From positions 289,333 through 353,332 of the forward strand of contig JBECUI020000029.1 in assembly GCA_040954595.2 (NCBI GenBank): a DNA stretch of 64,000 nucleotides, in the 5' to 3' direction. This DNA is from Balanoglossus misakiensis. Its lineage: Eukaryota > Animalia > Hemichordata. The notes beneath the pieces were generated by a model. That model was given only the letters and a program-made list of their open reading frames with translations. It ran no database searches and was not told where the DNA came from. Below, one piece after another: positions 3,501 through 38,294 of this stretch. Each line of letters opens with the position of its first letter. Positions within the stretch are counted from its first letter, which is position 1. A program made the position numbers and the translations under genes.

Positions 3501-6500
3501 AGTTGAGCTGAGGAGAGCACCTTCCTTCCCGGCACGCCACCAAGTAAAGTTCCACGCCGCCCACCACAGATGCCAGCATTCATTCATGCGAGTGAGTGTA
3601 ATTGCAAATTTGCCTATTCTAGATCTGTAATGGAAATGGAGAAAGTACCTTATATTTTCTGTAAAATAGACATTTAATTGGCAAGCCGTCCTGCATCAAT
3701 TATTAATTGTGTACATGCACTAAAGCGCCCTCACTGCTGGGTGTGTTGTATGGTCTTTAACCCTGTTTCAAATTAGAGTACTTTCTGCAATTTCAAGACA
3801 GATCTTACGTGCCATTGGAGAGCTCCATTGACTGGTCATTCATACTGTTTTCATTCATTCATTGCGGCATCAATATATTTTATCTATTCTAGCCAAAGAG
3901 CTTGGCACCTGTTGAAATGAACTCATCTGCTGTGGGCCAGTTTATTGGTGGCAGTTGAGCTGAGGAGAGCACCTTCCTTCCCGGCACGCCACCAAGTAAA
4001 GTTCCACGCCGCCCACCACAGATGCCAGCATTCATTCATGCGAGTGAGTGTAATTGCAAATTTGCCTATTCTAGATCTGTAATGGAAATGGAGAAAGTAC
4101 CTTATATTTTCTGTAAAATAGACATTTAATTGGCAAGCCGTCCTGCATCAATTATGAATTGTGTACATGCACTAAAGCGCCCTCACTGCTGGGTGTGTTG
4201 TATGGTCTTTAACCCTGTTTCAAATTAGAGTACTTTCTGCAATTTCAAGACAGATCTTACGTGCCATTGGAGAGCTCCATTGACTGGTCATTCATACTGT
4301 TTTCATTCATTCATTGCGGCATCAATATATTTTATCTATTCTAGCCAAAGAGCTTGGCACCTGTTGAAATGAACTCATCTGCTGTGGGCCAGTTTATTGG
4401 TGGCAGTTGAGCTGAGGAGAGCACCTTCCTTCCCGGCACGCCACCAAGTAAAGTTCCACGCCGCCCACCACAGATGCCAGCATTCATTCATGCGAGTGAG
4501 TGTAATTGCAAATTTGCCTATTCTAGATCTGTAATGGAAATGGAGAAAGTACCTTATATTTTCTGTAAAATAGACATTTAATTGGCAAGCCGTCCTGCAT
4601 CAATTATGAATTGTGTACATGCACTAAAGCGCCCTCACTGCTGGGTGTGTTGTATGGTCTTTAACCCTGTTTCAAATTAGAGTACTTTCTGCAATTTCAA
4701 GACAGATCTTACGTGCCATTGGAGAGCTCCATTGACTGGTCATTCATACTGTTTTCATTCATTCATTGCGGCATCAATATATTTTATCTATTCTAGCCAA
4801 AGAGCTTGGCACCTGTTGAAATGAACTCATCTGCTGTGGGCCAGTTTATTGGTGGCAGTTGAGCTGAGCAGAGCACCTTCCTTCCCGGCACGCCACCAAG
4901 TAAAGTTCCACGCCGCCCACCACAGATGCCAGCATTCATTCATGCGAGTGAGTGTAATTGCAAATTTGCCTATTCTAGATCTGTAATGGAAATGGAGAAA
5001 GTACCTTATATTTTCTGTAAAATAGACATTTAATTGGCAAGCCGTCCTGCATCAATTATGAATTGTGTACATGCACTAAAGCGCCCTCACTGCTGGGTGT
5101 GTTGTATGGTCTTTAACCCTGTTTCAAATTAGAGTACTTTCTGCAATTTCAAGACAGATCTTACGTGCCATTGGAGAGCTCCATTGACTGGTCATTCATA
5201 CTGTTTTCATTCATTCATTGCGGCATCAATATATTTTATCTATTCTAGCCAAAGAGCTTGGCACCTGTTGAAATGAACTCATCTGCTGTGGGCCAGTTTA
5301 TTGGTGGCAGTTGAGCTGAGGAGAGCACCTTCCTTCCCGGCACGCCACCAAGTAAAGTTCCACGCCGCCCACCACAGATGCCAGCATTCATTCATGCGAG
5401 TGAGTGTAATTGCAAATTTGCCTATTCTAGATCTGTAATGGAAATGGAGAAAGTACCTTATATTTTCTGTAAAATAGACATTTAATTGGCAAGCCGTCCT
5501 GCATCAATTATTAATTGTGTACATGCACTAAAGCGCCCTCACTGCTGGGTGTGTTGTATGGTCTTTAACCCTGTTTCAAATTAGAGTACTTTCTGCAATT
5601 TCAAGACAGATCTTACGTGCCATTGGAGAGCTCCATTGACTGGTCATTCATACTGTTTTCATTCATTCATTGCGGCATCAATATATTTTATCTATTCTAG
5701 CCAAAGAGCTTGGCACCTGTTGAAATGAACTCATCTGCTGTGGGCCAGTTTATTGGTGGCAGTTGAGCTGAGGAGAGCACCTTCTTTCCCGGCACGCCAC
5801 CAAGTAAAGTTCCACGCCGCCCACCACAGATGCCAGCATTCATTCATGCGAGTGAGTGTAATTGCAAATTTGCCTATTTACGTGCCATTGGAGAGCTCCA
5901 TTGACTGGTCATTCATACTGTTTTCATTCATTCATTGCGGCATCAATATATTTTATCTATTCTAGCCAAAGAGCTTGGCACCTGTTGAAATGAACTCATC
6001 TGCTGTGGGCCAGTTTATTGGTGGCAGTTGAGCTGAGGAGAGCACCTTCCTTCCCGGCACGCCACCAAGTAAAGTTCCACGCCGCCCACCACAGATGCCA
6101 GCATTCATTCATGCGAGTGAGTGTAATTGCAAATTTGCCTATTCTAGAATCTTACGTGCCATTGGAGAGCTCCATTGACTGGTCATTCATACTGTTTTCA
6201 TTCATTCATTGCGGCATCAATATATTTTATCTATTCTAGCCGAAGAGCTTGGCACCTGTTGAAATGAACTCATCTGCTGTGGGCCAGTTTATTGGTGGCA
6301 GTTGAGCTGAGGAGAGCACCTTCCTTCCCGGCACGCCACCAAGTAAAGTTCCACGCCGCCCACCACAGATGCCAGCATTCATTCATGCGAGTGAGTGTAA
6401 TTGCAAATTTGCCTATTCTAGATCTGTAATGGAAATGGAGAAAGTACCTTATATTTTCTGTAAAATAGACATTTAATTGGCAAGCCGTCCTGCATCAATT

Positions 6501-9500: not shown

Positions 9501-10845
9501 CAAAGAGCTTGGCACCTGTTGAAATGAACTCATCTGCTGTGGGCCAGTTTATTGGTGGCAGTTGAGCTGAGCAGAGCACCTTCCTTCCCGGCACGCCACC
9601 AAGTAAAGTTCCACGCCGCCCACCACAGATGCCAGCATTCATTCATGCGAGTGAGTGTAATTGCAAATTTGCCTATTCTAGATCTGTAATGGAAATGGAG
9701 AAAGTACCTTATATTTTCTGTAAAATAGACATTTAATTGGCAAGCCGTCCTGCATCAATTATGAATTGTGTACATGCACTAAAGCGCCCTCACTGCTGGG
9801 TGTGTTGTATGGTCTTTAACCCTGTTTCAAATTAGAGTACTTTCTGCAATTTCAAGACAGATCTTACGTGCCATTGGAGAGCTCCATTGACTGGTCATTC
9901 ATACTGTTTTCATTCATTCATTGCGGCATCAATATATTTTATCTATTCTAGCCAAAGAGCTTGGCACCTGTTGAAATGAACTCATCTGCTGTGGGCCAGT
10001 TTATTGGTGGCAGTTGAGCTGAGAAGAGCACCTTCCTTCCCGGCACGCCACCAAGTAAAGTTCCACGCCGCCCACCACAGATGCCAGCATTCATTCATGC
10101 GAGTGAGTGTAATTGCAAATTTGCCTATTCTAGATCTGTAATGGAAATGGAGAAAGTACCTTATATTTTCTGTAAAATAGACATTTAATTGGCAAGCCGT
10201 CCTGCATCAATTATGAATTGTGTACATGCACTAAAGCGCCCTCACTGCTGGGTGTGTTGTATGGTCTTTAACCCTGTTTCAAATTAGAGTACTTTCTGCA
10301 ATTTCAAGACAGATCTTACGTGCCATTGGAGAGCTCCATTGACTGGTCATTCATACTGTTTTCATTCATTCATTGCGGCATCAATATATTTTATCTATTC
10401 TAGCCAAAGAGCTTGGCACCTGTTGAAATGAACTCATCTGCTGTGGGCCAGTTTATTGGTGGCAGTTGAGCTGAGGAGAGCACCTTCCTTCCCGGCACGC
10501 CACCAAGTAAAGTTCCACGCCGCCCACCACAGATGCCAGCATTCATTCATGCGAGTGAGTGTAATTGCAAATTTGCCTATTCTAGATCTGTAATGGAAAT
10601 GGAGAAAGTACCTTATATTTTCTGTAAAATAGACATTTAATTGGCAAGCCGTCCTGCATCAATTATTAATTGTGTACATGCACTAAAGCGCCCTCACTGC
10701 TGGGTGTGTTGTATGGTCTTTAACCCTGTTTCAAATTAGAGTACTTTCTGCAATTTCAAGACAGATCTTACGTGCCATTGGAGAGCTCCATTGACTGGTC
10801 ATTCATACTGTTTTCATTCATTCATTGCGGCATCAATATATTTTA

Positions 10846-11269
10846 CAGCCGAAATTATGAAAGGTCGCCGATTCAATATGTGATCTAGACGTCCTGTGTG
10901 CACTGAACACACGATGTGTTTATCTAACACAAACAACAGAACCTCTCATAAAAGAGATGCGGTATCATTAGACTAATTACAGATGGTAGTCTGGAAACAC
11001 GCTCCCCCTCAGAGAGAGTTGTTTACTTGGGTACGATGTCAAAGTTTAATCTCAAAGTGTATACGCTTTATGTTGAGAGTGTACCCAAGTAAACAACTCT
11101 CTCTGAGGGGGAGCGTGTTTCCAGACTACCATCTGTAATTAGTCTAATGATACCGCATCTCTTTTATGAGAGGTTCTGTTGTTTGTGTTAGATAAACACA
11201 TCGTGTGTTCAGTGCACACAGGACGTCTAGATCACATATTGAATCGGCGACCTTTCATAATTTCGGCTG
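10846..11269. mobile_element. 424-bp MITE with 189-bp terminal inverted repeats and TA target-site duplication (Tc1/mariner-type)
   Basis: CAGCCGAAATTATGAAAGG...CCTTTCATAATTTCGGCTG. Arms 10846-11034 and 11081-11269 with a 46-bp spacer. TA at 10844-45 and 11270-71; the empty site TTTTATCT is seen in the other monomers. Confidence 0.95.
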
Positions 11270-11383
11270 TATCTATTCTAGCCAAAGAGCTTGGCACCTG
11301 TTGAAATGAACTCATCTGCTGTGGGCCAGTTTATTGGTGGCAGTTGAGCTGAGGAGAGCACCTTCCTTCCCGGCACGCCACCA

Positions 11384-13190
11384 AGTACAGTTCCACGTGC
11401 ATTCCTGGCCCTGGTTTTATTTATGTTTACAGACAATATTGCATTTTTGTACAAGTATTTTAATCAACTATAAATTTTGAATGTGTCATTTACCTGAACC
11501 GGTCATGTTGACCAGAATGATACATTTCTGCCTTCACTCACCCTATAAATATGTGATTGAGACATAGGTCATTTGCATAAGCTAACATACCAGAAAGTAA
11601 GCATATCTGTTGTTTTCCCTGTGTCACTGCCATCAAAGTAAAAATTAGACGTTGTGTAGAGCAAACTCCAATTTTTTGTTCTCAATAAACATGGATGAAT
11701 TACATAGAATGTGTTTGTTGTTTACAGTCTTTAAATGACACATTAGATTATGCACTTTACAAAACGTTTCTGAGAAACAAGTGACTAACTAGTTTCTTTC
11801 CACTGTGGCCAACGTGGTTCACTGTTTGTGTCAGAATCTCTCTGTTTTGCAAGGATTTTGAAATCATAGTGGTGACATGCATAGTGAAAATCAGCTACTT
11901 TCAAATGTCCGTCATGTTCATGCTGTAATTGAATTTTCAAAGCTGGGCTGGCGTGTTTTTTCTTATTTACATAAGTATCACACTTTATACATGTATCTTC
12001 ATGGGGTTTTTTGAGTCCCGTATTTAGGTCCTCTCTCACAATTTTACGAAATATCGTATAACTGACAGTTGTTCTTCCCAGAAGAGATTGGTTGGTTATG
12101 AACTCTCGGTGTAACTGCGATATACTGTGGGCCGGCGCCAGGTACGGTTTAAATCGAGGATTCCTGCAGTAGTGAGATTCTACAATTCTGTGCCTGCGTA
12201 CGTGTTCAGTGATATCAGTCAGCAAATTTGGATTGAGTTTCCGACGATGCCCTTTGTGTCGGCCCCTTGCATCTGGCATCAGACCAGTAAAGTTCCATGT
12301 GCATTCCTGGCCCTGGTTTTATTTATGTTTACAGACAATATTGCATTTTTGTACAAGTATTTTAATCAACTATAAATTTTGAATGTGTCATTTACCTGAA
12401 CCGGTCATGTTGACCAGAATGATACATTTCTGCCTTCACTCACCCTATAAATATGTGATTGAGACATAGGTCATTTGCATAAGCTAACATACCAGAAAGT
12501 AAGCATATCTGATGTTTTCCCTGTGTCACTGCCATCAAAGTAAAAATTAGACGTTGTGTAGAGCAAACTCCAATTTTTTGTTCTCAATAAACATGGATGA
12601 ATTACATAGAATGTGTTTGTTGTTTACAGTCTTTAAATGACACATTAGATTATGCACTTTACAAAACGTTTCTGAGAAACAAGTGACTAACTAGTTTCTT
12701 TCCACTGTGGCCAACGTGGTTCACTGTTTGTGTCAGAATCTCTCTGTTTTGCAAGGATTTTGAAATCATAGTGGTGACATGCATAGTGAAAATCAGCTAC
12801 TTTCAAATGTCCGTCATGTTCATGCTGTAATTGAATTTTCAAAGCTGGGCTGGCGTGTTTTTTCTTATTTACATAAGTATCACACTTTATACATGTATCT
12901 TCATGGGGTTTTCTGAGTCCCGTATTTAGGTCCTCTCTCACAATTTTACGAAATATCGTATAACTGACAGTTGTTCTTCCCAGAAGAGATTGGTTGGTTA
13001 TGAACTCTCGGTGTAACTGCGATATACTGTGGTCCGGCGCCAGGTACGGTTTAAATCGAGGATTCCTGCAGTAGTGAGATTCTACAATTCTGTGCCTGCG
13101 TACGTGTTCAGTGATATCAGTCAGCAAATTTGGATTGAGTTTCCGACGATGCCCTTTGTGTCGGCCCCTTGCATCTGGCATCAGACCAGT
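11384..13190. repeat. 902-bp tandem duplication inside the cassette
   Basis: 11384-12285 repeats as 12286-13187 with a few substitutions. AGT microhomology at the join (12286-88). ORF ends 11785 and 12687 differ by 902. Confidence 0.97.
11785..12279 (-). pseudogene. 5'-truncated duplicate of the transposase N-terminal-half ORF (164 aa)
   Basis: Matches the last 164 aa of the 12687 ORF apart from D>A and R>K. Created by the 902-bp duplication. Confidence 0.85.
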
Positions 13191-13643
13191 TGAACAGTGC
13201 ATCATTTTGCTTAGAACGGTTCTAGTCCGCCTCTCACTAATGCCAAATAATTTCAGGAATGCATTTTTGCAGACAGTAACCGTTTCACCGCCTTCATTCA
13301 CCAGGTGATAACGAACCGATTTCTTGTGTGACTTCATCTGCATATCCATCAGTTTGTAGAGCATCAAGTTCTGTTCATTATACACGCGACCATCAAAATA
13401 TTTTCTCGTGGTGCCTAAAACATGCGTACTCCCAAGCTTCCGCAGACAATTCCCTTGAACGCAGGCGCATTCCAAGGAAAGACTGTCAATATCTGGAAAA
13501 GGGCGATTTTTCCTTGGTTTTTGTCTCGGACACGTCTTTTTAGAATTCCTACGTGGCTTGTTGGCTCGAGCTGACAGTTCGGTTCTGCGTTGCTGCCACA
13601 CAGGAATGGGTTCCCACGCATAAGCAACTCCCCGGCAGGCCAT
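12687..13643 (-). CDS. Transposase N-terminal half (Sola1/DUF7869-like; putative DNA-binding and CxxC region)
   Basis: Motifs VCKNAFLKLFGIS, DARGRH, ESHYCR...YL, VSYTIFRKI, KPHEDTCIKCD are typical of the region preceding the catalytic core in this family. First ATG at 13643; intact frame. Confidence 0.8.
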   Translation of the reverse strand: MACRGVAYAWEPIPVWQQRRTELSARANKPRRNSKKTCPRQKPRKNRPFPDIDSLSLECACVQGNCLRKLGSTHVLGTTRKYFDGRVYNEQNLMLYKLMDMQMKSHKKSVRYHLVNEGGETVTVCKNAFLKLFGISERRTRTVLSKMMHCSTGLMPDARGRHKGHRRKLNPNLLTDITEHVRRHRIVESHYCRNPRFKPYLAPDHSISQLHREFITNQSLLGRTTVSYTIFRKIVREDLNTGLRKPHEDTCIKCDTYVNKKKHASPALKIQLQHEHDGHLKVADFHYACHHYDFKILAKQRDSDTNSEPRWPQWKETS

Positions 13644-13690
13644 GGTCACAGCTGAAGTATTTGTTCAAGTACTGACTGACTAAACGCGGC

Positions 13691-14824
13691 ATGGAACAAA
13701 CGAACGAACGACTTCACGTTCGGAAAAAAAATCGTTGCGAGCTGTTGGGTGCATGCCTCTATAGTTGTCGGCAACCGTTCTTTTTTATTGCTAAACAATG
13801 CTGTCAGAGCATGGAAGGTGTGGTGGAAAACGAACAGAGGTTTTGTACGACCAACGATTGGATGGTGCTACATATGGACTTCCACAAGTCATTGCCGGTT
13901 CCTAAACTCAGCTCTGAAGACTTTTACTTTAAATCGAAATTGCAAATGAAGCTCCTTGGAATTTACAACGGGACAACGGAAAAGATGCATTGTTATGTAT
14001 GGACAGAGCTCGATAGCAGAAAGTCTCCCGATGAAGTTATTACCTGTCTAAATCACTTTTTTTATAACTCGGGTGTGACCAGCAGACATGCAGTTATTTA
14101 CAGCGACAACTGCCGTGCCGAATTCAAGTGTGGGAAGTTAATGTTTTACTATGACTATCTGTTACGAAAGGGCGTGTTTCGACGAATTGACTATAAAACT
14201 CTTGTGGCTGGACACACGTACTCCACCTGTGACCGAGTTTTTGCGTCCATTGAAAGGCATGCAAGTCGTTTCCAGAGTATAGAGACACCTCACGATTGGA
14301 CATCTGTGATTCGAGGATCTTCTCTGAATGGGAACATTGGAGTTACGGAGATGACTCACAGAGACTTTTTCAATTATTCTGATTTCCTGAAAAATGAGTA
14401 CGTTGTGCGTTATGCAGATACAAACAATGTAACTTTTTACTACCAAGCCATGCACTATTTTAATTTTGGAGAAGGAGAAAGGCTTGATACCGACGGCAAC
14501 CTCAGAACATTTAGTCATGCAGATAAAGTTTGGGTGAGAACATCTCTAGATCCAAGCGAGACCCCGATTGTAGTCGACTTTAGAAAGAAGAAGCAGAACC
14601 GGCGTTTACAAGATTGTACGCTGAACAAACTTTATCAGGAACGTCGACCACTGGCGAGCAAAGTTTGGCGGGATCTTCAGAGTTTAGCCAAAAATTACCT
14701 GTCTCCGGAGGCAATAGAATTTTATAGGAATCTACCGCTTCAGGAGAGTAGTGGCACCTCTGCAGACCCGTACGCCTTTCATGATGATGACGACGACGAT
14801 GATGATGATATGGGCGGTGGTTGA
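13691..14824 (+). CDS. Transposase catalytic half (RNase H-like DDD core, Sola1/DUF7869-like)
   Basis: Motifs HMDFHKSLPVP, CYVWTE...SPDEVITCL, IYSDNC, GHTYSTCDRVFASIE; acidic tail; AATAAA overlaps the stop (14824-14829). The true start may be ATG 13811. Confidence 0.85.
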   Translation: MEQTNERLHVRKKNRCELLGACLYSCRQPFFFIAKQCCQSMEGVVENEQRFCTTNDWMVLHMDFHKSLPVPKLSSEDFYFKSKLQMKLLGIYNGTTEKMHCYVWTELDSRKSPDEVITCLNHFFYNSGVTSRHAVIYSDNCRAEFKCGKLMFYYDYLLRKGVFRRIDYKTLVAGHTYSTCDRVFASIERHASRFQSIETPHDWTSVIRGSSLNGNIGVTEMTHRDFFNYSDFLKNEYVVRYADTNNVTFYYQAMHYFNFGEGERLDTDGNLRTFSHADKVWVRTSLDPSETPIVVDFRKKKQNRRLQDCTLNKLYQERRPLASKVWRDLQSLAKNYLSPEAIEFYRNLPLQESSGTSADPYAFHDDDDDDDDDMGGG

Positions 14825-14985
14825 ATAAACTGTCCTTTTCATGACGACAGTGATTTTGGATATTTGATGTGCGTGCACAGTTTATATGTAATATTTTCAC
14901 ACGAACGAGTTTTGACTGAATTTGATTAAAGAATGTACTCGATAATTAACAAATGTGCTGAATCGTGGTTATTATGTTGTTAATT

Positions 14986-15025
14986 TTTGTTTGTTTGTTT
15001 GTTTGTTTGTTTGTTTGTTTGTTTG
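14986..15025 (+). repeat. (TTTG)10 microsatellite
   Basis: Read directly; also present in copy 2 near 33730-33769. Confidence 0.95.
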
Positions 15026-15158
15026 TAAACAATTTCCGTTCATTCAACTGGCTACAAAGTTGGATTTTTGTACTGGGAAGCGATAAACTCGCACATCAAA
15101 ACCGGGGAGACTCGATCATTTTTCCCTGCAGGTAGCCTGAAAAGCACCCGGGCAGAGA

Positions 15159-15231
15159 TTACGTCATATATGGTCCACTTTAATACGAAATTATGCAAAT
15201 GTGACATTTCACGGAAACGGCGTATATAAAA
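15159..15231 (+). promoter_or_regulatory. Putative Pol II promoter of the SET gene
   Basis: CRE-like TTACGTCA (15159), octamer ATGCAAAT (15193) and TATAAAA (15225-15231), about 95 bp upstream of ATG 15324. Confidence 0.55.
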
Positions 15232-15323
15232 GCGACCCTGGGCTATTGTTCGGAATGCGTCATCGACGAGAGAGTGACTGATAATTCTTCTACCTCGAGT
15301 CAACCATTCTGTATATACTGAAC

Positions 15324-16664
15324 ATGGCTAGCTGGCGCAGGAAGAGACAAGGCAATGTGCGGTCTGTAATCAACGAACGGCACCGCTCAGTTCAGTGTCC
15401 CTTTCTTCAAAAGTGGATCGGTGAGCAATTGGTATTTTCAGGTCGTTCAGAGGATGAAGTCCAGTCCAGTACTGTATTTGAGAGCTACAAATGTTGGGTT
15501 GAAAACTATTCGTCGGCGGACAATCAAGTAATGATTATGGTTACTAAAGCTCGATTTTTCAAGGTGAGAATGATCGCATTTTTCTTTCCCCCCCCCCCCT
15601 CCCTCCCTCCCTCCCTCCCCCAAGGGACTCGTTTTCTGTCTCTTTTAAACCTGTAACTTAACGAAAAGGAAGTTTTTCACATATCTCTTCGTTGACACTA
15701 TAGCAATTTGGAGCGCGGATGCTTCAAGAGAAGAGCGTTACCAAATCAAAGTCGGCCGGGGTTAATATTTATAGAGGTGTTCGTCTGAAAGCTGGTTCGC
15801 GAAGAATCTCAACGGGGAAACCTGAGCACAGTGTACTTCAGACCAGGGCAAGGGCATTTCTTGATGACGCCAGCGTGACCGTTCCGATCGAGGTAAGAAT
15901 GGTGTTTTGTTTGGACTAGGACAATAGAACGTTGCAATGAGTGTGTCAATGGGTGTCCAAGTGCAAACGTGGTCTGCTTCTGTCCACAAATGCCATTAAT
16001 TTTTGGCAGGATTTATAAAATTGTCAATGAAGAATACAAAAATGAAAAACAACAGTTAATAGCAAACTGGTAGGATTGCAAGGGCTTGTAAAACGGTACA
16101 CACTGTACCAGGAAGTTTGCAACACTAATGAAGAATGTATATGATATATTTAGGTGAGAACTGTTCGCGATCGCCGGGACGCAGGACGGTGCGCGTTTTC
16201 GACGAGGGATATTCAAGCCTGGGACGTCGTCTGCGAATACCGGGGCACGGTTATTAGCGTTGAAGAAGCTAGTCGGCGTGATGAGCTTTACAGGGCAGAG
16301 GGGAAACGACCACGCATGTTCCATCTCTACATTGGAAAGAGACACGTTGTGTGAGTGTATCACTTAGTCGAATATATGGTCATATATTGCAAAGCATCTG
16401 TCGAAATAGAAAACGTAATATTGTCTATATTTTCCTCATTAACGCAGCATTGACGGATACGATGTCCCAGCCGGTGAAGAAAATTTAGCAGGCCTAATAA
16501 ATCACAGTCAGCAGAACGCCAACTTGGTACCGGTTCGGATCGGAGAGCGCCTGGTTTTCTTTGCAACCAGGAATCTTTGTCAGGGAGTAGAGCTTTTGTA
16601 TGATTACGGTGACGGGGGTGAAGAGGATTTCTTCAGTGGTTCTCAAACTTTTCCTGAAAATTAA
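15324..16664 (+). CDS. Spliced SET-domain protein (SETD8/PR-Set7-like) with N-terminal winged-helix-like region; exons 15324-15563, 15704-15892, 16154-16350, 16448-16664; 280 aa
   Basis: Three GT-AG introns with matching phases (0, 0, 2) give one open frame. SET motifs GRCAFSTRDI, VCEYRG, IDG, LAGLINHS, ELLYDYGD. Confidence 0.9.
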
Positions 16665-17570
16665 GGCATTAACACATCAACGCTTCGGGGTGTCGTAACG
16701 GCGGCGCGGCGGGGGGGGGGGGGGGGACGTGAAAATGTTTGTATCAGGAACAAAATTCCCGTGCAAATCACCTTGATCCGGGTGGGTGGACTATTCGCGA
16801 CAAATGTTGAAATCATACAAAGCATTTTACTTAATTAACCCATTTTTTTCATTTATTTGTTTACAGTTTACAACGTCATAGAGAAGTTGAACTAGAGACT
16901 GGATCAGCGTGGGTGACACCATAGTACACCAATGTTTTCTTCAGTTTGATTCAATTGTAATTTAAAACTGAGATTGCCTAACGCTTTCCCAGATTTTTTT
17001 AACCACTGAGAAACTGTGGGTTTTTTTCTGGGTTTTGGTGCGAGGTGATCTCAGTCAGTGGTGTTAATTTAATTAATCATTTTCTTTTCCTATTTACGTC
17101 GACTGAAATGTATTTTGATAGGTGATAGTCATACCATAAAAAAAATCTTACGGCGCGACTGCCAAAATGTACATTTATTTGTCCGTTCCAAGTTATTTTG
17201 TGTATGTGTGATGGGTGCCGGTGACTGTGCAGGGTTGATTTCCCTAGAGCGACTGTTATATTCGTTTTCCAACGATGATGAATTTACATGTTATTTGCTT
17301 GGCATTTTGACGCAGAGACACTTCTGAAAACACAAACCTATTAATTATGCCACGGGTGTAAATTGATCACATTAAAAGAGGCTTTAGACGTTTGCCGCGA
17401 GCTCCTGGTGGGCAGAATCTTGTCAGCCCAAATTTGACTATAAGTACATAGCCAATGATGTGACGCTCTCCCACATCCTTCGCCGCGCCTTTTCGCTGAT
17501 TTACAGCATCTTGCGTAAACACTGTCATTTGATCTTGCTTGGCAGAAGTCAACTTGCTCTATACTACATT

Positions 17571-17936
17571 ATGGCGGCCAAGCTCAACTGCATATCAGAT
17601 AATGCCAAGGAGCGTTTGAGAGGCATCCTCGCCAGAAGGAGTCGCGTTTCCGGTGACTGTGTGCTCTGGACGGGTGCAGCTTGTCGAAACGGCTATGGCT
17701 CTATTACGTTCAGAGATGAGAACACTCTAACCGCCTATGTCCATCACATTGCACTCCTAATTAACGGAGTGCAATTGGTGGGCAGGCGGTTAGAGTGTTC
17801 TCATCTTTGCAACGAAAAGCTATGCATCCGCCCAGAGCACATTGTCCAGGAAACGCGACTCCTAAACATTTCACGAAAGACGTGCTTTAAATCCCCAAAA
17901 GGGGAGTGTCACCACGATCCCAGGTGCCTAAGGTGA
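17571..17936 (+). CDS. His-Cys box / His-Me finger endonuclease (zinc-binding loop homing-endonuclease type)
   Basis: CVLWTG...GYG, YVHH, SHLCNEKLCIRPEHI...E...N.SRKTC...CHHDPRC. ATG at 17571. The stop lies within AG|GTGAGT, a possible splice donor. Confidence 0.85.
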   Translation: MAAKLNCISDNAKERLRGILARRSRVSGDCVLWTGAACRNGYGSITFRDENTLTAYVHHIALLINGVQLVGRRLECSHLCNEKLCIRPEHIVQETRLLNISRKTCFKSPKGECHHDPRCLR

Positions 17937-18844
17937 GTAATCCTCTTCTCATTTGATATGTATTGTGTGACCCTGCAGTTGAAACGCTTTCATCAATAAT
18001 TTGCGGCGCGTGGGTAATCTCGGTGTTATTGACAATGCAGCCGGCCCAAACATTTTTAAATTAACACTGTTTCTGACTGTATTAACGAAATGTCCAATTT
18101 GCAAGTAGCCTATAGACAACCCTTTTGAATGAGTTTTGTCTCGTTGAGATTTTATACATAAGGAACAATCTAGATTTATTTTAGAAGACACTGTTCTTTT
18201 AAAACAGCTAGCATAATACAGCTAAATTTCGGAATTTCCGGACAATTTTCGGAATTCCTTTTAAATTTGAGAAATTTTTCATCAGATATAAGTGTTACTA
18301 TTTATTGGACATGTTTTTATCATTGTTTACTTTTTAAGGTCATTCTCACCCCCCCCCCCCCAAAAAAAGCCGCTTTAGGCTTCATGTTCAGTAAAAAATC
18401 TGGAAAGTTCAGCTGAATTTTACACTGATCACACATTTTTGGGAAGGTCTGGCGCAAAATAAAGGATGACAAATGTAAATCTAATGTCACATTTGTAAAC
18501 CTCTAAGTATTGTACACTCATTCTATTAAGTATATGCAAATAGTACGGATAATTTTTTCGGAATGTGGAATTCCGAAATTAGTTCGGAACGTGTTAGCAG
18601 TGAAGAGATCACCACTGAGGGTTGGAAGGCCTTGCCAGAAATTAACGCGTAAAGTACGCCCTCACAGGCCATGTAAACAAGGTCAAATAAGGCCGTCTGG
18701 CAAACGAATGATTAATTCAACGCGCCATTTGAGCCGAGCTGAGTTGGTCTGAGTTGCGTATCACACAGACTTAGGCTGAATGTCAGTGGAGTAACCAGTC
18801 CGTTTTAGATTTACCAATGATGTGAATTTAATTTCTTCACCCAG

Positions 18845-19250
18845 AAAAACAGAACACAACTTGTCTGCAACATGATGCTGGAGGTGACACATGACAGAGA
18901 AGTGGATCCGCGTTGTCAACACAGATGCCAGCATTCAAAAGGGGAGTGCCACCTGCTAAAATCAACTCATCTGCTGTTGGCCCATTTTACCTGTGGCAAC
19001 TGTTCAGAGGAGACAACGTTTATTCCGTGCAAGCCAACACGCAATGTTGGGGTCTACCTGTCAACACAGATGCAAGCATTCATGTGAGTGAGTATCAGGA
19101 CTGACCTTGTATTTGCTGAATAATTCATAATGCCTATTTTAGAATTCTTAGAGGCATTTGGAGTTCATTGCCTGGTCAACCAAACTACACCCCTTAACAG
19201 CTGAAACAAAATGCGTATTGTGTTCATTCATTCATTGCATCAATATATAT
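18845..19250 (+). other. Diverged homolog of the satellite monomer (exon 18845-~19087 plus intron-like sequence)
   Basis: Shares CACCTG..AAAT.AACTCATCTGCTGT.GGCC, CACAGATGC.AGCATTCAT, GAGTGAGT, TGCCTATT.TAGAATTCTTA and TTCATTCATTCATTGC with the monomer, in the same order. Acceptor TTTCTTCACCCAG at 18844. Confidence 0.85.
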
Positions 19251-19555
19251 AGGCAACATGAGTATCAAGTAGCACTATTTGTTTACGATTGTATTCATGA
19301 AAACTTCCCACTAACAATTCCACAGTTAATATTGAACACATTTATCCAACAAGGTCAAAAGAAAAAGGGAATCTTCTGGTTCCAAAATACGCCACAAATG
19401 TGGGTCAACATACAGTGAAATATTATGGTGCTCAAATATGCAACATATCAAATCTGTCTCATCAAAGTCATGCTTTAAAAAAGAATTGAAAAGGTATTAT
19501 TTATCCATTTGACTGCTGTATTTTCAGAAGGAAAACAAACTGAATTTGGTTTTTC

Positions 19556-30141: not shown

Positions 30142-30528
30142 TGCATTCCTGGCCCTGGTTTTATTTATGTTTACAGACAATATTGCATTTTTGTACAAGT
30201 ATTTTAATCAACTATAAATTTTGAATGTGTCATTTACCTGAACCGGTCATGTTGACCAGAATGATACATTTCTGCCTTCACTCACCCTATAAATATGTGA
30301 TTGAGACATAGGTCATTTGCATAAGCTAACATACCAGAAAGTAAGCATATCTGTTGTTTTCCCTGTGTCACTGCCATCAAAGTAAAAATTAGACGTTGTG
30401 TAGAGCAAACTCCAATTTTTTGTTCTCAATAAACATGGATGAATTACATAGAATGTGTTTGTTGTTTACAGTCTTTAAATGACACATTAGATTATGCACT
30501 TTACAAAACGTTTCTGAGAAACAAGTGA

Positions 30529-31023
30529 CTAACTAGTTTCTTTCCACTGTGGCCAACGTGGTTCACTGTTTGTGTCAGAATCTCTCTGTTTTGCAAGGAT
30601 TTTGAAATCATAGTGGTGACATGCATAGTGAAAATCAGCTACTTTCAAATGTCCGTCATGTTCATGCTGTAATTGAATTTTCAAAGCTGGGCTGGCGTGT
30701 TTTTTCTTATTTACATAAGTATCACACTTTATACATGTATCTTCATGGGGTTTTTTGAGTCCCGTATTTAGGTCCTCTCTCACAATTTTACGAAATATCG
30801 TATAACTGACAGTTGTTCTTCCCAGAAGAGATTGGTTGGTTATGAACTCTCGGTGTAACTGCGATATACTGTGGGCCGGCGCCAGGTACGGTTTAAATCG
30901 AGGATTCCTGCAGTAGTGAGATTCTACAATTCTGTGCCTGCGTACGTGTTCAGTGATATCAGTCAGCAAATTTGGATTGAGTTTCCGACGATGCCCTTTG
31001 TGTCGGCCCCTTGCATCTGGCAT
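30529..31023 (-). pseudogene. 5'-truncated duplicate of transposase N-half, copy 2
   Basis: Same as 11785-12279, offset 18744. Confidence 0.85.
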
Positions 31024-31430
31024 CAGACCAGTAAAGTTCCATGTGCATTCCTGGCCCTGGTTTTATTTATGTTTACAGACAATATTGCATTTTTGTACAA
31101 GTATTTTAATCAACTATAAATTTTGAATGTGTCATTTACCTGAACCGGTCATGTTGACCAGAATGATACATTTCTGCCTTCACTCACCCTATAAATATGT
31201 GATTGAGACATAGGTCATTTGCATAAGCTAACATACCAGAAAGTAAGCATATCTGATGTTTTCCCTGTGTCACTGCCATCAAAGTAAAAATTAGACGTTG
31301 TGTAGAGCAAACTCCAATTTTTTGTTCTCAATAAACATGGATGAATTACATAGAATGTGTTTGTTGTTTACAGTCTTTAAATGACACATTAGATTATGCA
31401 CTTTACAAAACGTTTCTGAGAAACAAGTGA

Positions 31431-32387
31431 CTAACTAGTTTCTTTCCACTGTGGCCAACGTGGTTCACTGTTTGTGTCAGAATCTCTCTGTTTTGCAAGG
31501 ATTTTGAAATCATAGTGGTGACATGCATAGTGAAAATCAGCTACTTTCAAATGTCCGTCATGTTCATGCTGTAATTGAATTTTCAAAGCTGGGCTGGCGT
31601 GTTTTTTCTTATTTACATAAGTATCACACTTTATACATGTATCTTCATGGGGTTTTCTGAGTCCCGTATTTAGGTCCTCTCTCACAATTTTACGAAATAT
31701 CGTATAACTGACAGTTGTTCTTCCCAGAAGAGATTGGTTGGTTATGAACTCTCGGTGTAACTGCGATATACTGTGGTCCGGTGCCAGGTACGGTTTAAAT
31801 CGAGGATTCCTGCAGTAGTGAGATTCTACAATTCTGTGCCTGCGTACGTGTTCAGTGATATCAGTCAGCAAATTTGGATTGAGTTTCCGACGATGCCCTT
31901 TGTGTCGGCCCCTTGCATCTGGCATCAGACCAGTTGAACAGTGCATCATTTTGCTTAGAACGGTTCTAGTCCGCCTCTCACTAATGCCAAATAATTTCAG
32001 GAATGCATTTTTGCAGACAGTAACCGTTTCACCGCCTTCATTCACCAGGTGATAACGAACCGATTTCTTGTGTGACTTCATCTGCATATCCATCAGTTTG
32101 TAGAGCATCAAGTTCTGTTCATTATACACGCGACCATCAAAATATTTTCTCGTGGTGCCTAAAACATGCGTACTCCCAAGCTTCCGCATACAATTCCCTT
32201 GAACGCAGGCGCATTCCAAGGAAAGACTGTCAATATCTGGAAAAGGGCGATTTTTCCTTGGTTTTTGTCTCGGACACGTCTTTTTAGAATTCCTACGTGG
32301 CTTGTTGGCTCGAGCTGACAGTTCGGTTCTGCGTTGCTGCCACACAGGAATGGGTTCCCACGCATAAGCAACTCCCCGGCAGGCCAT
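31431..32387 (-). CDS. Transposase N-terminal half, copy 2
   Basis: Same as copy 1 except one L>M change (GNCLRK/GNCMRK). Confidence 0.8.
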   Translation of the reverse strand: MACRGVAYAWEPIPVWQQRRTELSARANKPRRNSKKTCPRQKPRKNRPFPDIDSLSLECACVQGNCMRKLGSTHVLGTTRKYFDGRVYNEQNLMLYKLMDMQMKSHKKSVRYHLVNEGGETVTVCKNAFLKLFGISERRTRTVLSKMMHCSTGLMPDARGRHKGHRRKLNPNLLTDITEHVRRHRIVESHYCRNPRFKPYLAPDHSISQLHREFITNQSLLGRTTVSYTIFRKIVREDLNTGLRKPHEDTCIKCDTYVNKKKHASPALKIQLQHEHDGHLKVADFHYACHHYDFKILAKQRDSDTNSEPRWPQWKETS

Positions 32388-32434
32388 GGTCACAGCTGAA
32401 GTATTTGTTCAAGTACTGACTGACTAAACGCGGC

Positions 32435-33568
32435 ATGGAACAAACGAACGAACGACTTCACGTTCGGAAAAAAAATCGTTGCGAGCTGTTGGGTGCATGC
32501 CTCTATAGTTGTCGGCAACCGTTCTTTTTTATTGCTAAACAATGCTGTCAGAGCATGGAAGGTGTGGTGGAAAACGAACAGAGGTTTTGTACGACCAACG
32601 ATTGGATGGTGCTACATATGGACTTCCACAAGTCATTGCCGGTTCCTAAACTCAGCTCTGAAGACTTTTACTTTAAATCGAAATTGCAAATGAAGCTCCT
32701 TGGAATTTACAACGGGACAACGGAAAAGATGCATTGTTATGTATGGACAGAGCTCGATAGCAGAAAGTCTCCCGATGAAGTTATTACCTGTCTAAATCAC
32801 TTTTTTTATAACTCGGGTGTGACCAGCAGACATGCAGTTATTTACAGCGACAACTGCCGTGCCGAATTCAAGTGTGGGAAGTTAATGTTTTACTATGACT
32901 ATCTGTTACGAAAGGGCGTGTTTCGACGAATTGACTATAAAACTCTTGTGGCTGGACACACGTACTCCACCTGTGACCGAGTTTTTGCGTCCATTGAAAG
33001 GCATGCAAGTCGTTTCCAGAGTATAGAGACACCTCACGATTGGACATCTGTGATTCGAGGATCTTCTCTGAATGGGAACATTGGAGTTACGGAGATGACT
33101 CACAGAGACTTTTTCAATTATTCTGATTTCCTGAAAAATGAGTACGTTGTGCGTTATGCAGATACAAACAATGTAACTTTTTACTACCAAGCCATGCACT
33201 ATTTTAATTTTGGAGAAGGAGAAAGGCTTGATACCGACGGCAACCTCAGAACATTTAGTCATGCAGATAAAGTTTGGGTGAGAACATCTCTAGATCCAAG
33301 CGAGACCCCGATTGTAGTCGACTTTAGAAAGAAGAAGCAGAACCGGCGTTTACAAGATTGTACGCTGAACAAACTTTATCAGGAACGTCGACCACTGGCG
33401 AGCAAAGTTTGGCGGGATCTTCAGAGTTTAGCCAAAAATTACCTGTCTCCGGAGGCAATAGAATTTTATAGGAATCTACCGCTTCAGGAGAGTAGTGGCA
33501 CCTCTGCAGACCCGTACGCCTTTCATGATGATGACGACGACGATGATGATGATATGGGCGGTGGTTGA
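32435..33568 (+). CDS. Transposase catalytic half, copy 2
   Basis: Translation identical to 13691-14824. Confidence 0.85.
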   Translation: MEQTNERLHVRKKNRCELLGACLYSCRQPFFFIAKQCCQSMEGVVENEQRFCTTNDWMVLHMDFHKSLPVPKLSSEDFYFKSKLQMKLLGIYNGTTEKMHCYVWTELDSRKSPDEVITCLNHFFYNSGVTSRHAVIYSDNCRAEFKCGKLMFYYDYLLRKGVFRRIDYKTLVAGHTYSTCDRVFASIERHASRFQSIETPHDWTSVIRGSSLNGNIGVTEMTHRDFFNYSDFLKNEYVVRYADTNNVTFYYQAMHYFNFGEGERLDTDGNLRTFSHADKVWVRTSLDPSETPIVVDFRKKKQNRRLQDCTLNKLYQERRPLASKVWRDLQSLAKNYLSPEAIEFYRNLPLQESSGTSADPYAFHDDDDDDDDDMGGG

Positions 33569-34067
33569 ATAAACTGTCCTTTTCATGACGACAGTGATTT
33601 TGGATATTTGATGTGCGTGCACAGTTTATATGTAATATTTTCACACGAACGAGTTTTGACTGAATTTGATTAAAGAATGTACTCGATAATTAACAAATGT
33701 GCTGAATCGTGGTTATTATGTTGTTAATTTTTGTTTGTTTGTTTGTTTGTTTGTTTGTTTGTTTGTTTGTAAACAATTTCCGTTCATTCAACTGGCTACA
33801 AAGTTGGATTTTTGTACTGGGAAGCGATAAACTCGCACATCAAAACCGGGGAGACTCGATCATTTTTCCCTGCAGGTAGCCTGAAAAGCACCCGGGCAGA
33901 GATTACGTCATATATGGTCCACTTTAATACGAAATTATGCAAATGTGACATTTCACGGAAACGGCGTATATAAAAGCGACCCTGGGCTATTGTTCGGAAT
34001 GCGTCATCGACGAGAGAGTGACTGATAATTCTTCTACCTCGAGTCAACCATTCTGTATATACTGAAC

Positions 34068-35405
34068 ATGGCTAGCTGGCGCAGGAAGAGACAAGGCAAT
34101 GTGCGGTCTGTAATCAACGAACGGCACCGCTCAGTTCAGTGTCCCTTTCTTCAAAAGTGGATCGGTGAGCAATTGGTATTTTCAGGTCGTTCAGAGGATG
34201 AAGTCCAGTCCAGTACTGTATTTGAGAGCTACAAATGTTGGGTTGAAAACTATTCGTCGGCGGACAATCAAGTAATGATTATGGTTACTAAAGCTCGATT
34301 TTTCAAGGTGAGAATGATCGCATTTTTCTTTCCCCCCCCCCCCCTCCCTCCCTCCCTCCCCCAAGGGACTCGTTTTCTGTCTCTTTTAAACCTGTAACTT
34401 AACGAAAAGGAAGTTTTTCACATATCTCTTCGTTGACACTATAGCAATTTGGAGCGCGGATGCTTCAAGAGAAGAGCGTTACCAAATCAAAGTCGGCCGG
34501 GGTTAATATTTATAGAGGTGTTCGTCTGAAAGCTGGTTCGCGAAGAATCTCAACGGGGAAACCTGAGCACAGTGTACTTCAGACCAGGGCAAGGGCATTT
34601 CTTGATGACGCCAGCGTGACCGTTCCGATCGAGGTAAGAATGGTGTTTTGTTTGGACTAGGACAATAGAACGTTGCAATGAGTGTGTCAATGGGTGTCCA
34701 AGTGCAAACGTGGTCTGCTTCTGTCCACAAATGCCATTAATTTTTGGCAGGATTTATAAAATTGTCAATGAAGAATACAAAAATGAAAAACAACAGTTAA
34801 TAGCAAACTGGTAGGATTGCAAGGGCTTGTAAAACGGTACACACTGTACCAGGAAGTTTGCAACACTAATGAAGAATGTATATGATATATTTAGGTGAGA
34901 ACTGTTCGCGATCGCCGGGACGCAGGACGGTGCGCGTTTTCGACGAGGGATATTCAAGCCTGGGACGTCGTCTGCGAATACCGGGGCACGGTTATTAGCG
35001 TTGAAGAAGCTAGTCGGCGTGATGAGCTTTACAGGGCAGAGGGGAAACGACCACGCATGTTCCATCTCTACATTGGAAAGAGACACGTTGTGTGAGTGTA
35101 TCACTTAGTCGAATATATGGTCATATATTGCAAAGCATCTGTCGAAATAGAAAACGTAATATTGTCTATATTTTCCTCATTAACGCAGCATTGACGGATA
35201 CGATGTCCCAGCCGGTGAAGAAAATTTAGCAGGCCTAATAAATCACAGTCAGCAGAACGCCAACTTGGTACCGGTTCGGATCGGAGAGCGCCTGGTTTTC
35301 TTTGCAACCAGGAATCTTTGTCAGGGAGTAGAGCTTTTGTATGATTACGGTGACGGGGGTGAAGAGGATTTCTTCAGTGGTTCTCAAACTTTTCCTGAAA
35401 ATTAA
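34068..35405 (+). CDS. Spliced SET-domain protein, copy 2; exons 34068-34307, 34445-34633, 34895-35091, 35189-35405
   Basis: Same exons and splice sites as copy 1; intron 1 is 3 bp shorter in its poly-C tract. Confidence 0.9.
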
Positions 35406-36308
35406 GGCATTAACACATCAACGCTTCGGGGTGTCGTAACGGCGGCGCGGCGGGGGGGGGGGGGACGTGAAAATGTTTGTATCAGGAACAAAATTCCCGT
35501 GCAAATCACCTTGATCCGGGTGGGTGGACTATTCGCGACAAATGTTGAAATCATACAAAGCATTTTACTTAATTAACCCATTTTTTTCATTTATTTGTTT
35601 ACAGTTTACAACGTCATAGAGAAGTTGAACTAGAGACTGGATCAGCGTGGGTGACACCATAGTACACCAATGTTTTCTTCAGTTTGATTCAATTGTAATT
35701 TAAAACTGAGATTGCCTAACGCTTTCCCAGATTTTTTTAACCACTGAGAAACTGTGGGTTTTTTTCTGGGTTTTGGTGCGAGGTGATCTCAGTCAGTGGT
35801 GTTAATTTAATTAATCATTTTCTTTTCCTATTTACGTCGACTGAAATGTATTTTGATAGGTGATAGTCATACCATAAAAAAAATCTTACGGCGCGACTGC
35901 CAAAATGTACATTTATTTGTCCGTTCCAAGTTATTTTGTGTATGTGTGATGGGTGCCGGTGACTGTGCAGGGTTGATTTCCCTAGAGCGACTGTTATATT
36001 CGTTTTCCAACGATGATGAATTTACATGTTATTTGCTTGGCATTTTGACGCAGAGACACTTCTGAAAACACAAACCTATTAATTATGCCACGGGTGTAAA
36101 TTGATCACATTAAAAGAGGCTTTAGACGTTTGCCGCGAGCTCCTGGTGGGCAGAATCTTGTCAGCCCAAATTTGACTATAAGTACATAGCCAATGATGTG
36201 ACGCTCTCCCACATCCTTCGCCGCGCCTTTTCGCTGATTTACAGCATCTTGCGTAAACACTGTCATTTGATCTTGCTTGGCAGAAGTCAACTTGCTCTAT
36301 ACTACATT

Positions 36309-36674
36309 ATGGCGGCCAAGCTCAACTGCATATCAGATAATGCCAAGGAGCGTTTGAGAGGCATCCTCGCCAGAAGGAGTCGCGTTTCCGGTGACTGTGT
36401 GCTCTGGACGGGTGCAGCTTGTCGAAACGGCTATGGCTCTATTACGTTCAGAGATGAGAACACTCTAACCGCCTATGTCCATCACATTGCACTCCTAATT
36501 AACGGAGTGCAATTGGTGGGCAGGCGGTTAGAGTGTTCTCATCTTTGCAACGAAAAGCTATGCATCCGCCCAGAGCACATTGTCCAGGAAACGCGACTCC
36601 TAAACATTTCACGAAAGACGTGCTTTAAATCCCCAAAAGGGGAGTGTCACCACGATCCCAGGTGCCTAAGGTGA
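36309..36674 (+). CDS. His-Cys box / His-Me finger endonuclease, copy 2
   Basis: Translation identical to copy 1. Confidence 0.85.
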   Translation: MAAKLNCISDNAKERLRGILARRSRVSGDCVLWTGAACRNGYGSITFRDENTLTAYVHHIALLINGVQLVGRRLECSHLCNEKLCIRPEHIVQETRLLNISRKTCFKSPKGECHHDPRCLR

Positions 36675-37583
36675 GTAATCCTCTTCTCATTTGATATGTA
36701 TTGTGTGACCCTGCAGTTGAAACGCTTTCATCAATAATTTGCGGCGCGTGGGTAATCTCGGTGTTATTGACAATGCAGCCGGCCCAAACATTTTTAAATT
36801 AACACTGTTTCTGACTGTATTAACGAAATGTCCAATTTGCAAGTAGCCTATAGACAACCCTTTTGAATGAGTTTTGTCTCGTTGAGATTTTATACATAAG
36901 GAACAATCTAGATTTATTTTAGAAGACACTGTTCTTTTAAAACAGCTAGCATAATACAGCTAAATTTCGGAATTTCCGGACAATTTTCGGAATTCCTTTT
37001 AAATTTGAGAAATTTTTCATCAGATATAAGTGTTACTATTTATTGGACATGTTTTTATCATTGTTTACTTTTTAAGGTCATTCTCACCCCCCCCCCCCCC
37101 AAAAAAAGCCGCTTTAGGCTTCATGTTCAGTAAAAAATCTGGAAAGTTCAGCTGAATTTTACACTGATCACACATTTTTGGGAAGGTCTGGCGCAAAATA
37201 AAGGATGACAAATGTAAATCTAATGTCACATTTGTAAACCTCTAAGTATTGTACACTCATTCTATTAAGTATATGCAAATAGTACGGATAATTTTTTCGG
37301 AATGTGGAATTCCGAAATTAGTTCGGAACGTGTTAGCAGTGAAGAGATCACCACTGAGGGTTGGAAGGCCTTGCCAGAAATTAACGCGTAAAGTACGCCC
37401 TCACAGGCCATGTAAACAAGGTCAAATAAGGCCGTCTGGCAAACGAATGATTAATTCAACGCGCCATTTGAGCCGAGCTGAGTTGGTCTGAGTTGCGTAT
37501 CACACAGACTTAGGCTGAATGTCAGTGGAGTAACCAGTCCGTTTTAGATTTACCAATGATGTGAATTTAATTTCTTCACCCAG

Positions 37584-37989
37584 AAAAACAGAACACAACT
37601 TGTCTGCAACATGATGCTGGAGGTGACACATGACAGAGAAGTGGATCCGCGTTGTCAACACAGATGCCAGCATTCAAAAGGGGAGTGCCACCTGCTAAAA
37701 TCAACTCATCTGCTGTTGGCCCATTTTACCTGTGGCAACTGTTCAGAGGAGACAACGTTTATTCCGTGCAAGCCAACACGCAATGTTGGGGTCTACCTGT
37801 CAACACAGATGCAAGCATTCATGTGAGTGAGTATCAGGACTGACCTTGTATTTGCTGAATAATTCATAATGCCTATTTTAGAATTCTTAGAGGCATTTGG
37901 AGTTCATTGCCTGGTCAACCAAACTACACCCCTTAACAGCTGAAACAAAATGCGTATTGTGTTCATTCATTCATTGCATCAATATATAT
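37584..37989 (+). other. Diverged homolog of the satellite monomer, copy 2
   Basis: Same as 18845-19250, offset 18739. Confidence 0.85.
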
Positions 37990-38294
37990 AGGCAACATGA
38001 GTATCAAGTAGCACTATTTGTTTACGATTGTATTCATGAAAACTTCCCACTAACAATTCCACAGTTAATATTGAACACATTTATCCAACAAGGTCAAAAG
38101 AAAAAGGGAATCTTCTGGTTCCAAAATACGCCACAAATGTGGGTCAACATACAGTGAAATATTATGGTGCTCAAATATGCAACATATCAAATCTGTCTCA
38201 TCAAAGTCATGCTTTAAAAAAGAATTGAAAAGGTATTATTTATCCATTTGACTGCTGTATTTTCAGAAGGAAAACAAACTGAATTTGGTTTTTC

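Follow-up and report, generated by a model that had tools for sequence, protein, structure and literature searches.

Two head-to-head genes in the hemichordate Balanoglossus misakiensis probably encode the separated halves of a DUF7869-type transposase

Can the DNA-binding part and the catalytic part of one transposase be carried by two intact genes on opposite strands? The question is raised by a locus in the hemichordate Balanoglossus misakiensis, within a stretch of 64,000 nucleotides (contig JBECUI020000029.1, positions 289,333 to 353,332; hereinafter the window), in which a gene for an N-terminal half (N-half) lies head to head with a gene for a catalytic half (C-half). Probably, one DUF7869-type DDD transposase was divided long ago in elements of marine animals, and the two genes encode its N-terminal and its catalytic half, which are likely to reassemble as a two-subunit enzyme. 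The pair comprises the following features, in window coordinates.

12687-13643, minus strand: N-half gene, 318 residues, with a basic N-terminus, Cys/His motifs, a predicted helix-turn-helix-like domain, a long helix and a clade-specific W/P/W tail
13811-14824, plus strand: C-half gene, 337 residues from the probable ATG at 13811, DUF7869, with D23, D99, H135, D141 and an acidic tail
13644-13810, no strand: spacer of 167 nt from one probable start codon to the other, a candidate promoter for both genes, with indel variants at 13723 and 13750
12318-12323, minus strand: AATAAA for the N-half, about 18 nt short of where satellite-derived sequence begins
14824-14829, plus strand: AATAAA for the C-half, overlapping the C-half stop codon

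The minus-strand open reading frame (ORF; 12687-13664) runs 325 codons from stop to stop, with its first ATG at 13643, and the plus-strand ORF (13676-14824) runs 382 codons, with its first ATG at 13691. By comparison, when the 8.16-kb unit that carries the pair was base-shuffled 200 times, ORFs reached at most 182 codons. Both ORFs are free of stops and frameshifts, as stated in a preliminary description of this DNA, and their translations contain the motifs named there (VCKNAFLKLFGIS, DARGRH, ESHYCR, PHEDTCIKC and HMDFHK). Each half also has its own AATAAA, again as described: that at 14824 on the plus strand is the sole one in 14780-15330, and TTTATT at 12318 is the sole one in 12280-12700. 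In a Pfam scan, the C-half matches DUF7869 (PF25273) only, with 54.6 bits against a cut-off of 26 (E 1.4e-14), and the N-half has no match. We take DUF7869 proteins to be Sola1-type DDD transposases.

The first ATGs are 47 nt apart by literal count, but the start codons in use are probably 167 nt apart, because the homologues start near the first Asp and indel variants lie upstream of ATG 13811. Specifically, ATG 13811 lies 22 residues before the first Asp, with A at −3 and G at +4, and the C-half relatives P0001 and P0002 start with Met at a common column, 15 residues before the first Asp. In the Logan contigs of X1, indels at 13723 (depth 89.5) and 13750 (depth 302), compared with 753 alongside, shorten the frame from ATG 13691 to 24 and 84 residues, respectively. 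ATG 13691 was rejected as a needed start on the basis of the homologue starts and these common upstream variants. X1, X2 and X5 represent one sample, possibly the window's own source, and are not independent confirmation; X3 and X4, with short low-depth pieces only, were excluded. Contigs of X1 (13161-13731) and X2 cover both first ATGs, with no joint to another arrangement listed. An assembly artefact was rejected, as the window has two copies of the layout, 99.9% identical, and a contig spans the junction. Low-depth diverged contigs over the C-half in X1 suggest older C-half relatives elsewhere in the genome. Within the spacer, a palindromic CTATAG (13757-13765) could, speculatively, be TATA-like in both directions, and GTTGTCGGCAAC near 13764 presumably resembles an RFX box.

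The halves correspond to consecutive parts of single-chain proteins. A HMMER search with the N-half against 1.84 billion representatives returned 2,591 matches at E 0.001 or better, of which the best 150 were examined; in 72 of these, the C-half profile matches downstream in the same protein. The N-half match ends at 372 and the C-half match starts at 377 in P0011, and the corresponding positions are 333 and 335 in P0025 and 282 and 284 in P0106. Aligned in this way to full-length DUF7869 transposases, the two halves are complementary and do not overlap, and the motifs lie in the same order in the fused homologues, collinear in one polypeptide as the preliminary description states for such proteins. 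A word-index search gave nothing for the N-half and, with the C-half alignment, failed to return longer forms; the same search missed the existing fused forms.

In 40 of the 47 well-covered fused proteins with both motifs, 46-68 residues (median 60) separate DxCxxC from the first Asp. In the window, the N-half extends 70 residues beyond DxCxxC and the C-half has 22 residues ahead of the Asp. Because these 70 and 22 residues compare with a median of 60 in the fused proteins, the break is placed in the linker after the long helix; the whole triad stays in the C-half, and the new ends would have gained about 32 residues. All 23 aligned rows, 20 of them fused homologues (P0037 and P0153 were left out for poor coverage), share D99, H135 and D141, and D23 is present in 22, with one gap. 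The C-half has the D-D-D triad and the GH motif that are conserved in DUF7869 proteins; from knowledge of the family, D23, D99, H135 and D141 are the putative catalytic residues. In single-chain DUF7869 proteins, the motif order and the D, D, H, D positions are the same as in the window pair, which differs in its two opposite-strand genes and in the extra residues at its new ends.

The near identity of the window copies, which are hence young, would suit a recent private inversion that broke one transposase gene and left its halves undecayed so far. The relatives of the two halves largely refute this account. The query and 14 of the best 150 N-half matches form one clade without any fused member, compared with 72 fused among the 136 matches outside it. 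The clade has a Shimodaira–Hasegawa (SH) support of 96 in a FastTree phylogeny of 149 rows (P0079 and P0133, too short, excluded) and support of 100/99 in an IQ-TREE phylogeny of 37 rows (15 of the clade and 22 of the 72 fused proteins). As clade membership in the latter was taken from the former, the IQ-TREE result confirms rather than freshly tests the clade; both trees are midpoint-rooted. The six best N-half matches are 306-347 residues long, match over their whole length at 33-40% identity and end where the query ends; N-half identity within the clade is 26-40%. Among proteins that extend at least 62 residues past DxCxxC, the first-Asp motif is found in none of 8 in the clade and in 83 of 100 outside it. 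P0005 ends 53 residues past DxCxxC; P0060 is cut by its contig end, and its cluster mates P0161 and P0164 end 65 and 72 residues past the motif. The W/P/W tail motif (RWPQW in the query) is terminal in 5 of the 14 clade matches and in none of the 136 others, the pattern having been drawn from those members. Named N-half members come from Oculina, Nematostella (two loci) and Actinostola, and the Oculina protein XP_078355980.1, a RefSeq model, is a stand-alone N-half of 359 residues.

On the catalytic side, P0001 (51% identity) and P0002 (47%; Saccoglossus XP_002739486.1) form a clade with the query C-half, with support of 100/99, the bootstrap having not fully converged. The best N-half match, P0004, and the best C-half match, P0001, each lie on a 2,400-bp Logan contig, enough for both halves, and judging from this equal length they are probably on the same contig. 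Since halves encoded separately are found repeatedly in the clade, at 26-51% identity, a private recent inversion does not explain the split. The closest homologues are not all continuous genes, the finding by which the preliminary description would have been refuted. Halves that end and start on their own, with termini peculiar to the lineage and missing from fused proteins, make a recent inversion scarcely credible; on the sequence comparisons, the split is an old fission and a trait of the clade.

Several observations weigh against an old split into two genes. Five of the 14 clade matches (P0010, P0012, P0017, P0051 and P0091) end early and are uninformative on the split point. Only two C-half clusters were found, and the newer Saccoglossus model P0003 has 38 more residues upstream. 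Minor X1 contigs (depth 61 of 864) have a 7-nt insertion inside the C-half. In L001, the contig of P0060 (26% identical to the query), the 3.9 kb upstream of the N-half contain no C-half, and the N-half gene is itself truncated by the contig end; this case indicates that the head-to-head layout is not universal among relatives. Many matches, moreover, are unspliced ORF calls that could be first exons.

The last point leads to a second alternative, in which the relatives are single genes with an intron at the break, their stand-alone halves are exon calls, and only this genome inverted an exon. It would account for most matches being unspliced calls, for L001 without an upstream C-half, for the differing tails in cluster 9 (QQAI versus QQGNLSVQQII) and for some cnidarian members that break earlier within the N-half. 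However, reading into an intron would not be expected to preserve a W/P/W tail ahead of the stop codon in proteins that share 30-40% identity. The initial Met falls in one column in two C-halves, the Oculina RefSeq model also stands alone, and the window halves are intact even though they lie on opposite strands. We consider the intron explanation improbable.

L001 itself is a eukaryote-like contig in a bacterial bin. Its gene at 3917-4963 is 48% identical to the Oculina-cluster protein P0014 and is filed under a Microscillaceae bacterium (HAS44388.1); it is probably misbinned eukaryotic DNA. The genome behind it, G001, has one N-half match and no C-half or DUF7869 match; as the control was also unmatched, this absence is uninformative. 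No relative's genomic context was found with the C-half alignment in metagenome and viral contigs, or with P0008 and P0091 in viral contigs. A degenerate N-half pattern occurred in 3 viral and 76 metagenome stretches, and none of the 79 encodes a relative.

If the halves are separate genes, they may still be rejoined after transcription. Trans-splicing between opposite strands is known from Drosophila mod(mdg4), and an acceptor-like AG follows a T-rich tract 3 nt upstream of ATG 13811 and is in frame with it. The donor-like sites of the N-half at 12724 and 12691, in the last 37 coding nucleotides, are in phase 1, however, and the acceptor at 13808 needs phase 0; a weaker AG at 13818, inside the C-half, would suit phase 1. 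Both halves, moreover, have a stop or Met of their own as well as a separate AATAAA. Rejoining of the halves into a single-chain transposase is therefore very unlikely. In the IS3 and IS1 families (OrfA/OrfB and InsA/InsB), a frame break likewise lies between the DNA-binding and catalytic parts. Those halves are co-oriented and are rejoined by programmed frameshifting, which the opposite strands rule out here.

More likely, one enzyme is restored by association of the two proteins. The predicted N-half model (predicted local distance difference test, pLDDT, 64) is folded into ordered domains between about residues 50 and 290, the last element being the long helix. Residues 160-240 align best with chain M of a Tn7-type transpososome (9bw1_M; Z 6.6, root-mean-square deviation (RMSD) 2.8, 63 aligned) and also with TnsB (8aa5; Z 5.8, RMSD 3.5, 68 aligned), both below the safe level of Z 8. 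Foldseek with the N-half model gave nothing at E 0.001 or better, and no solved relative was found by sequence. The C-half model has a pLDDT of 39. Cys and His residues are invariant in the N-half alignment and suggest zinc sites.

The complex of the two halves was predicted with a score of 0.45, compared with 0.00 for the best of three controls; the agreement between three runs is at least 57% of contacts, with a partner pLDDT of at least 59. The mark for a complex is reached by 51 of 78 solved complexes and by 2 of 108 mismatched pairs, and scores passing at 0.60 or below, as here, occur in only 5 of the 78 solved complexes but in all 4 passing mismatches. Halves of a split gene can also pass by likeness to solved structures. 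The prediction thus lends the two-subunit transposase of the preliminary description slight support.

From these data, a mechanism for the two-subunit enzyme can be proposed. A single ancestral break would have fallen in the linker that joins the long helix to the first catalytic strand. The N-half would bind the DNA ends of the element through its helix-turn-helix-like and Cys/His (probably zinc) parts and recruit the catalytic half, and the C-half would cut DNA. The long helix and the new C-terminal tail of the N-half may dock on the catalytic domain, and both halves may be co-expressed from the 167-nt spacer.

By analogy, the window pair most likely works like the PIF/Harbinger two-protein transposons, without being a member of that group. 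In the available text of PMC2836001, binding and catalysis in Ping, Pong and Harbinger3_DR are divided over two interacting element proteins, both of which are needed. Most likely, the N-half plays the part that ORF1 has for the Harbinger transposase, binding the element ends and bringing in the catalytic half. The Harbinger partner is a Myb-like protein, whereas the window partner would be the transposase's own former N-terminal half, with single-chain relatives extant. The Pfam scan gave neither a Myb-like ORF1 nor a Harbinger-type transposase domain for the window pair. In known two-protein cut-and-paste systems of the PIF/Harbinger kind, the second protein is not a piece of a transposase. 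Here, split and single-chain forms of one family coexist and the breakpoint is mapped, so that the step from one to two subunits is directly testable. A split of this kind allows DNA binding and cutting to be controlled separately, and repeat annotation that expects one ORF would miss such elements or score them as broken.

The window is an array of a 452-bp satellite, with 124 copies plus shorter variants, broken twice by one 8.16-kb unit that carries the gene pair. The remaining features are as follows.

11398-19555, no strand: first copy of the 8.16-kb unit, replacing satellite monomer positions 208-293
30142-38294, no strand: second copy of the unit, likewise replacing monomer positions 208-293
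31431-32387, minus strand, and 32555-33568, plus strand: N-half and C-half of the second copy, both intact
11380-12288, minus strand: 903-bp tandem duplicate of the 3' part and 3' untranslated region of the N-half gene, 5'-truncated, 99.3% identical to 12283-13190
15324-15563, 15704-15892, 16154-16350 and 16448-16664, plus strand: four-exon SET-domain gene, PF00856 on two exons
17388-17936, plus strand: His-Me finger ORF (zinc-binding loop of homing endonuclease), PF05551, E 6.7e-13

The order within the unit is N-half duplicate, N-half (minus), C-half (plus), SET gene and His-Me finger ORF. The second-copy N-half differs from the first by one synonymous change and L67M. The duplicate contains a 177-codon frame (11785-12318) and has a contig depth of 1564, compared with 753 alongside (X1). 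In a splice test, the SET gene gives GT-AG introns and a single open frame of 280 residues; together with the named homologues, these spliceosomal introns indicate an animal host.

Terminal inverted repeats (TIRs) and target-site duplications (TSDs) were looked for at the junctions between unit and satellite and were not found, a further point against our reading, although the true ends may be lost or elsewhere. A 13/16 inverted match of the unit left end to 15838 was rejected as being at chance level and inside a SET exon. Because both copies share an identical monomer position, the unit appears to have spread by array turnover; in the window, amplification along with the satellite array is more probable than transposition of the unit itself.

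These features would also suit a domesticated host gene pair that is no longer mobile: both copies sit at one satellite position, neither TIRs nor TSDs mark the junctions, and the halves stay intact across deep divergence. Set against this, the triad is intact, SET and His-Me finger genes lie alongside, and divergence within the clade is high (N-halves 26-40%). Cluster 9 has two copies, both on 455,956-bp contigs and both cut short, Nematostella has two loci, and decayed C-half relatives occur at low depth in X1. Domestication is thus unlikely, and the halves of a transposon-borne enzyme remain our preferred reading.

Two described element types invite comparison with the unit as a whole. The autonomous Sola1 element in the available part of PMC3845634 carries a single ORF of 630 residues, has TIRs and uses AWWT target sites; neither such TIRs nor its 4-bp AWWT TSD was found at the satellite junctions of the window unit. 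KolobokP, as presented in the available part of PMC9587614, pairs its DDD/E transposase with a gene for a His-Me finger nuclease and forms tandem multimers, and the nuclease gene has a counterpart near the window pair in the PF05551 ORF. The window transposase is DUF7869-type and split, unlike the Kolobok-type transposase. KolobokP has complete long terminal direct repeats and a TTAA target duplication, whereas the 452-bp repeat makes up long independent arrays and is interrupted where the unit joins it. Identity with KolobokP was rejected on the DUF7869-type transposase and on the replacement of monomer positions 208-293 without duplication. In the literature covered, no split Sola or DUF7869 transposase was found described; Repbase and Bao et al. 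2009 lie outside that coverage and may already hold such elements. The available portions of PMC5751038, PMC4455052, PMC3985635, PMC3627910 and bioRxiv 10.1101/2021.09.26.461848, on Sola, contain no split form.

More tentatively, the pair could belong to an unnamed lineage of animal DNA transposons, from cnidarians to hemichordates, in which the transposase was split once into DNA-binding and catalytic subunits with a new docking tail and one divergent promoter, accompanied by SET and His-Me finger genes and still active. Such an active lineage would be a living intermediate in the origin of two-protein transposases from one-protein ancestors, and would offer a natural two-part switch for transposon tools.

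Some minor observations concern the unit and the array. The short satellite variants (265-274 bp) recur in a repeated order, forming a higher-order array (window 1-64000) with the gene unit inside. The unit left junction (11398 and 12299) lies about 18 nt past the N-half AATAAA, in the expected transcript cleavage zone, and a poly(T) tract is absent. At the right end, 18917-19248 consists of diverged satellite monomer pieces (71-95%), and an X2 contig joins 19036 to 12287, which implies another left flank in some copies. Broken frames at 19152-19489 presumably resemble the 3' end of a long interspersed nuclear element (LINE) ORF2, judging from motif, and have no Pfam match. Exons 1-2 of the SET gene (15324-15892; FLQKWI...Y.CW...FFK...IYRGVRLK) resemble a winged helix of RFX/D5 type, for which Pfam gave no support. 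A 26-nt inverted repeat (17711-17809) lies within the His-Me finger coding sequence, and a 23-nt inverted repeat pair 308 nt apart (18236-18589), with raised contig depth, is probably a dispersed small element. Before the first copy only, one satellite monomer contains a 428-bp near-perfect palindrome (10844-11271; 199-nt arms, 98%) that resembles a miniature inverted-repeat transposable element.

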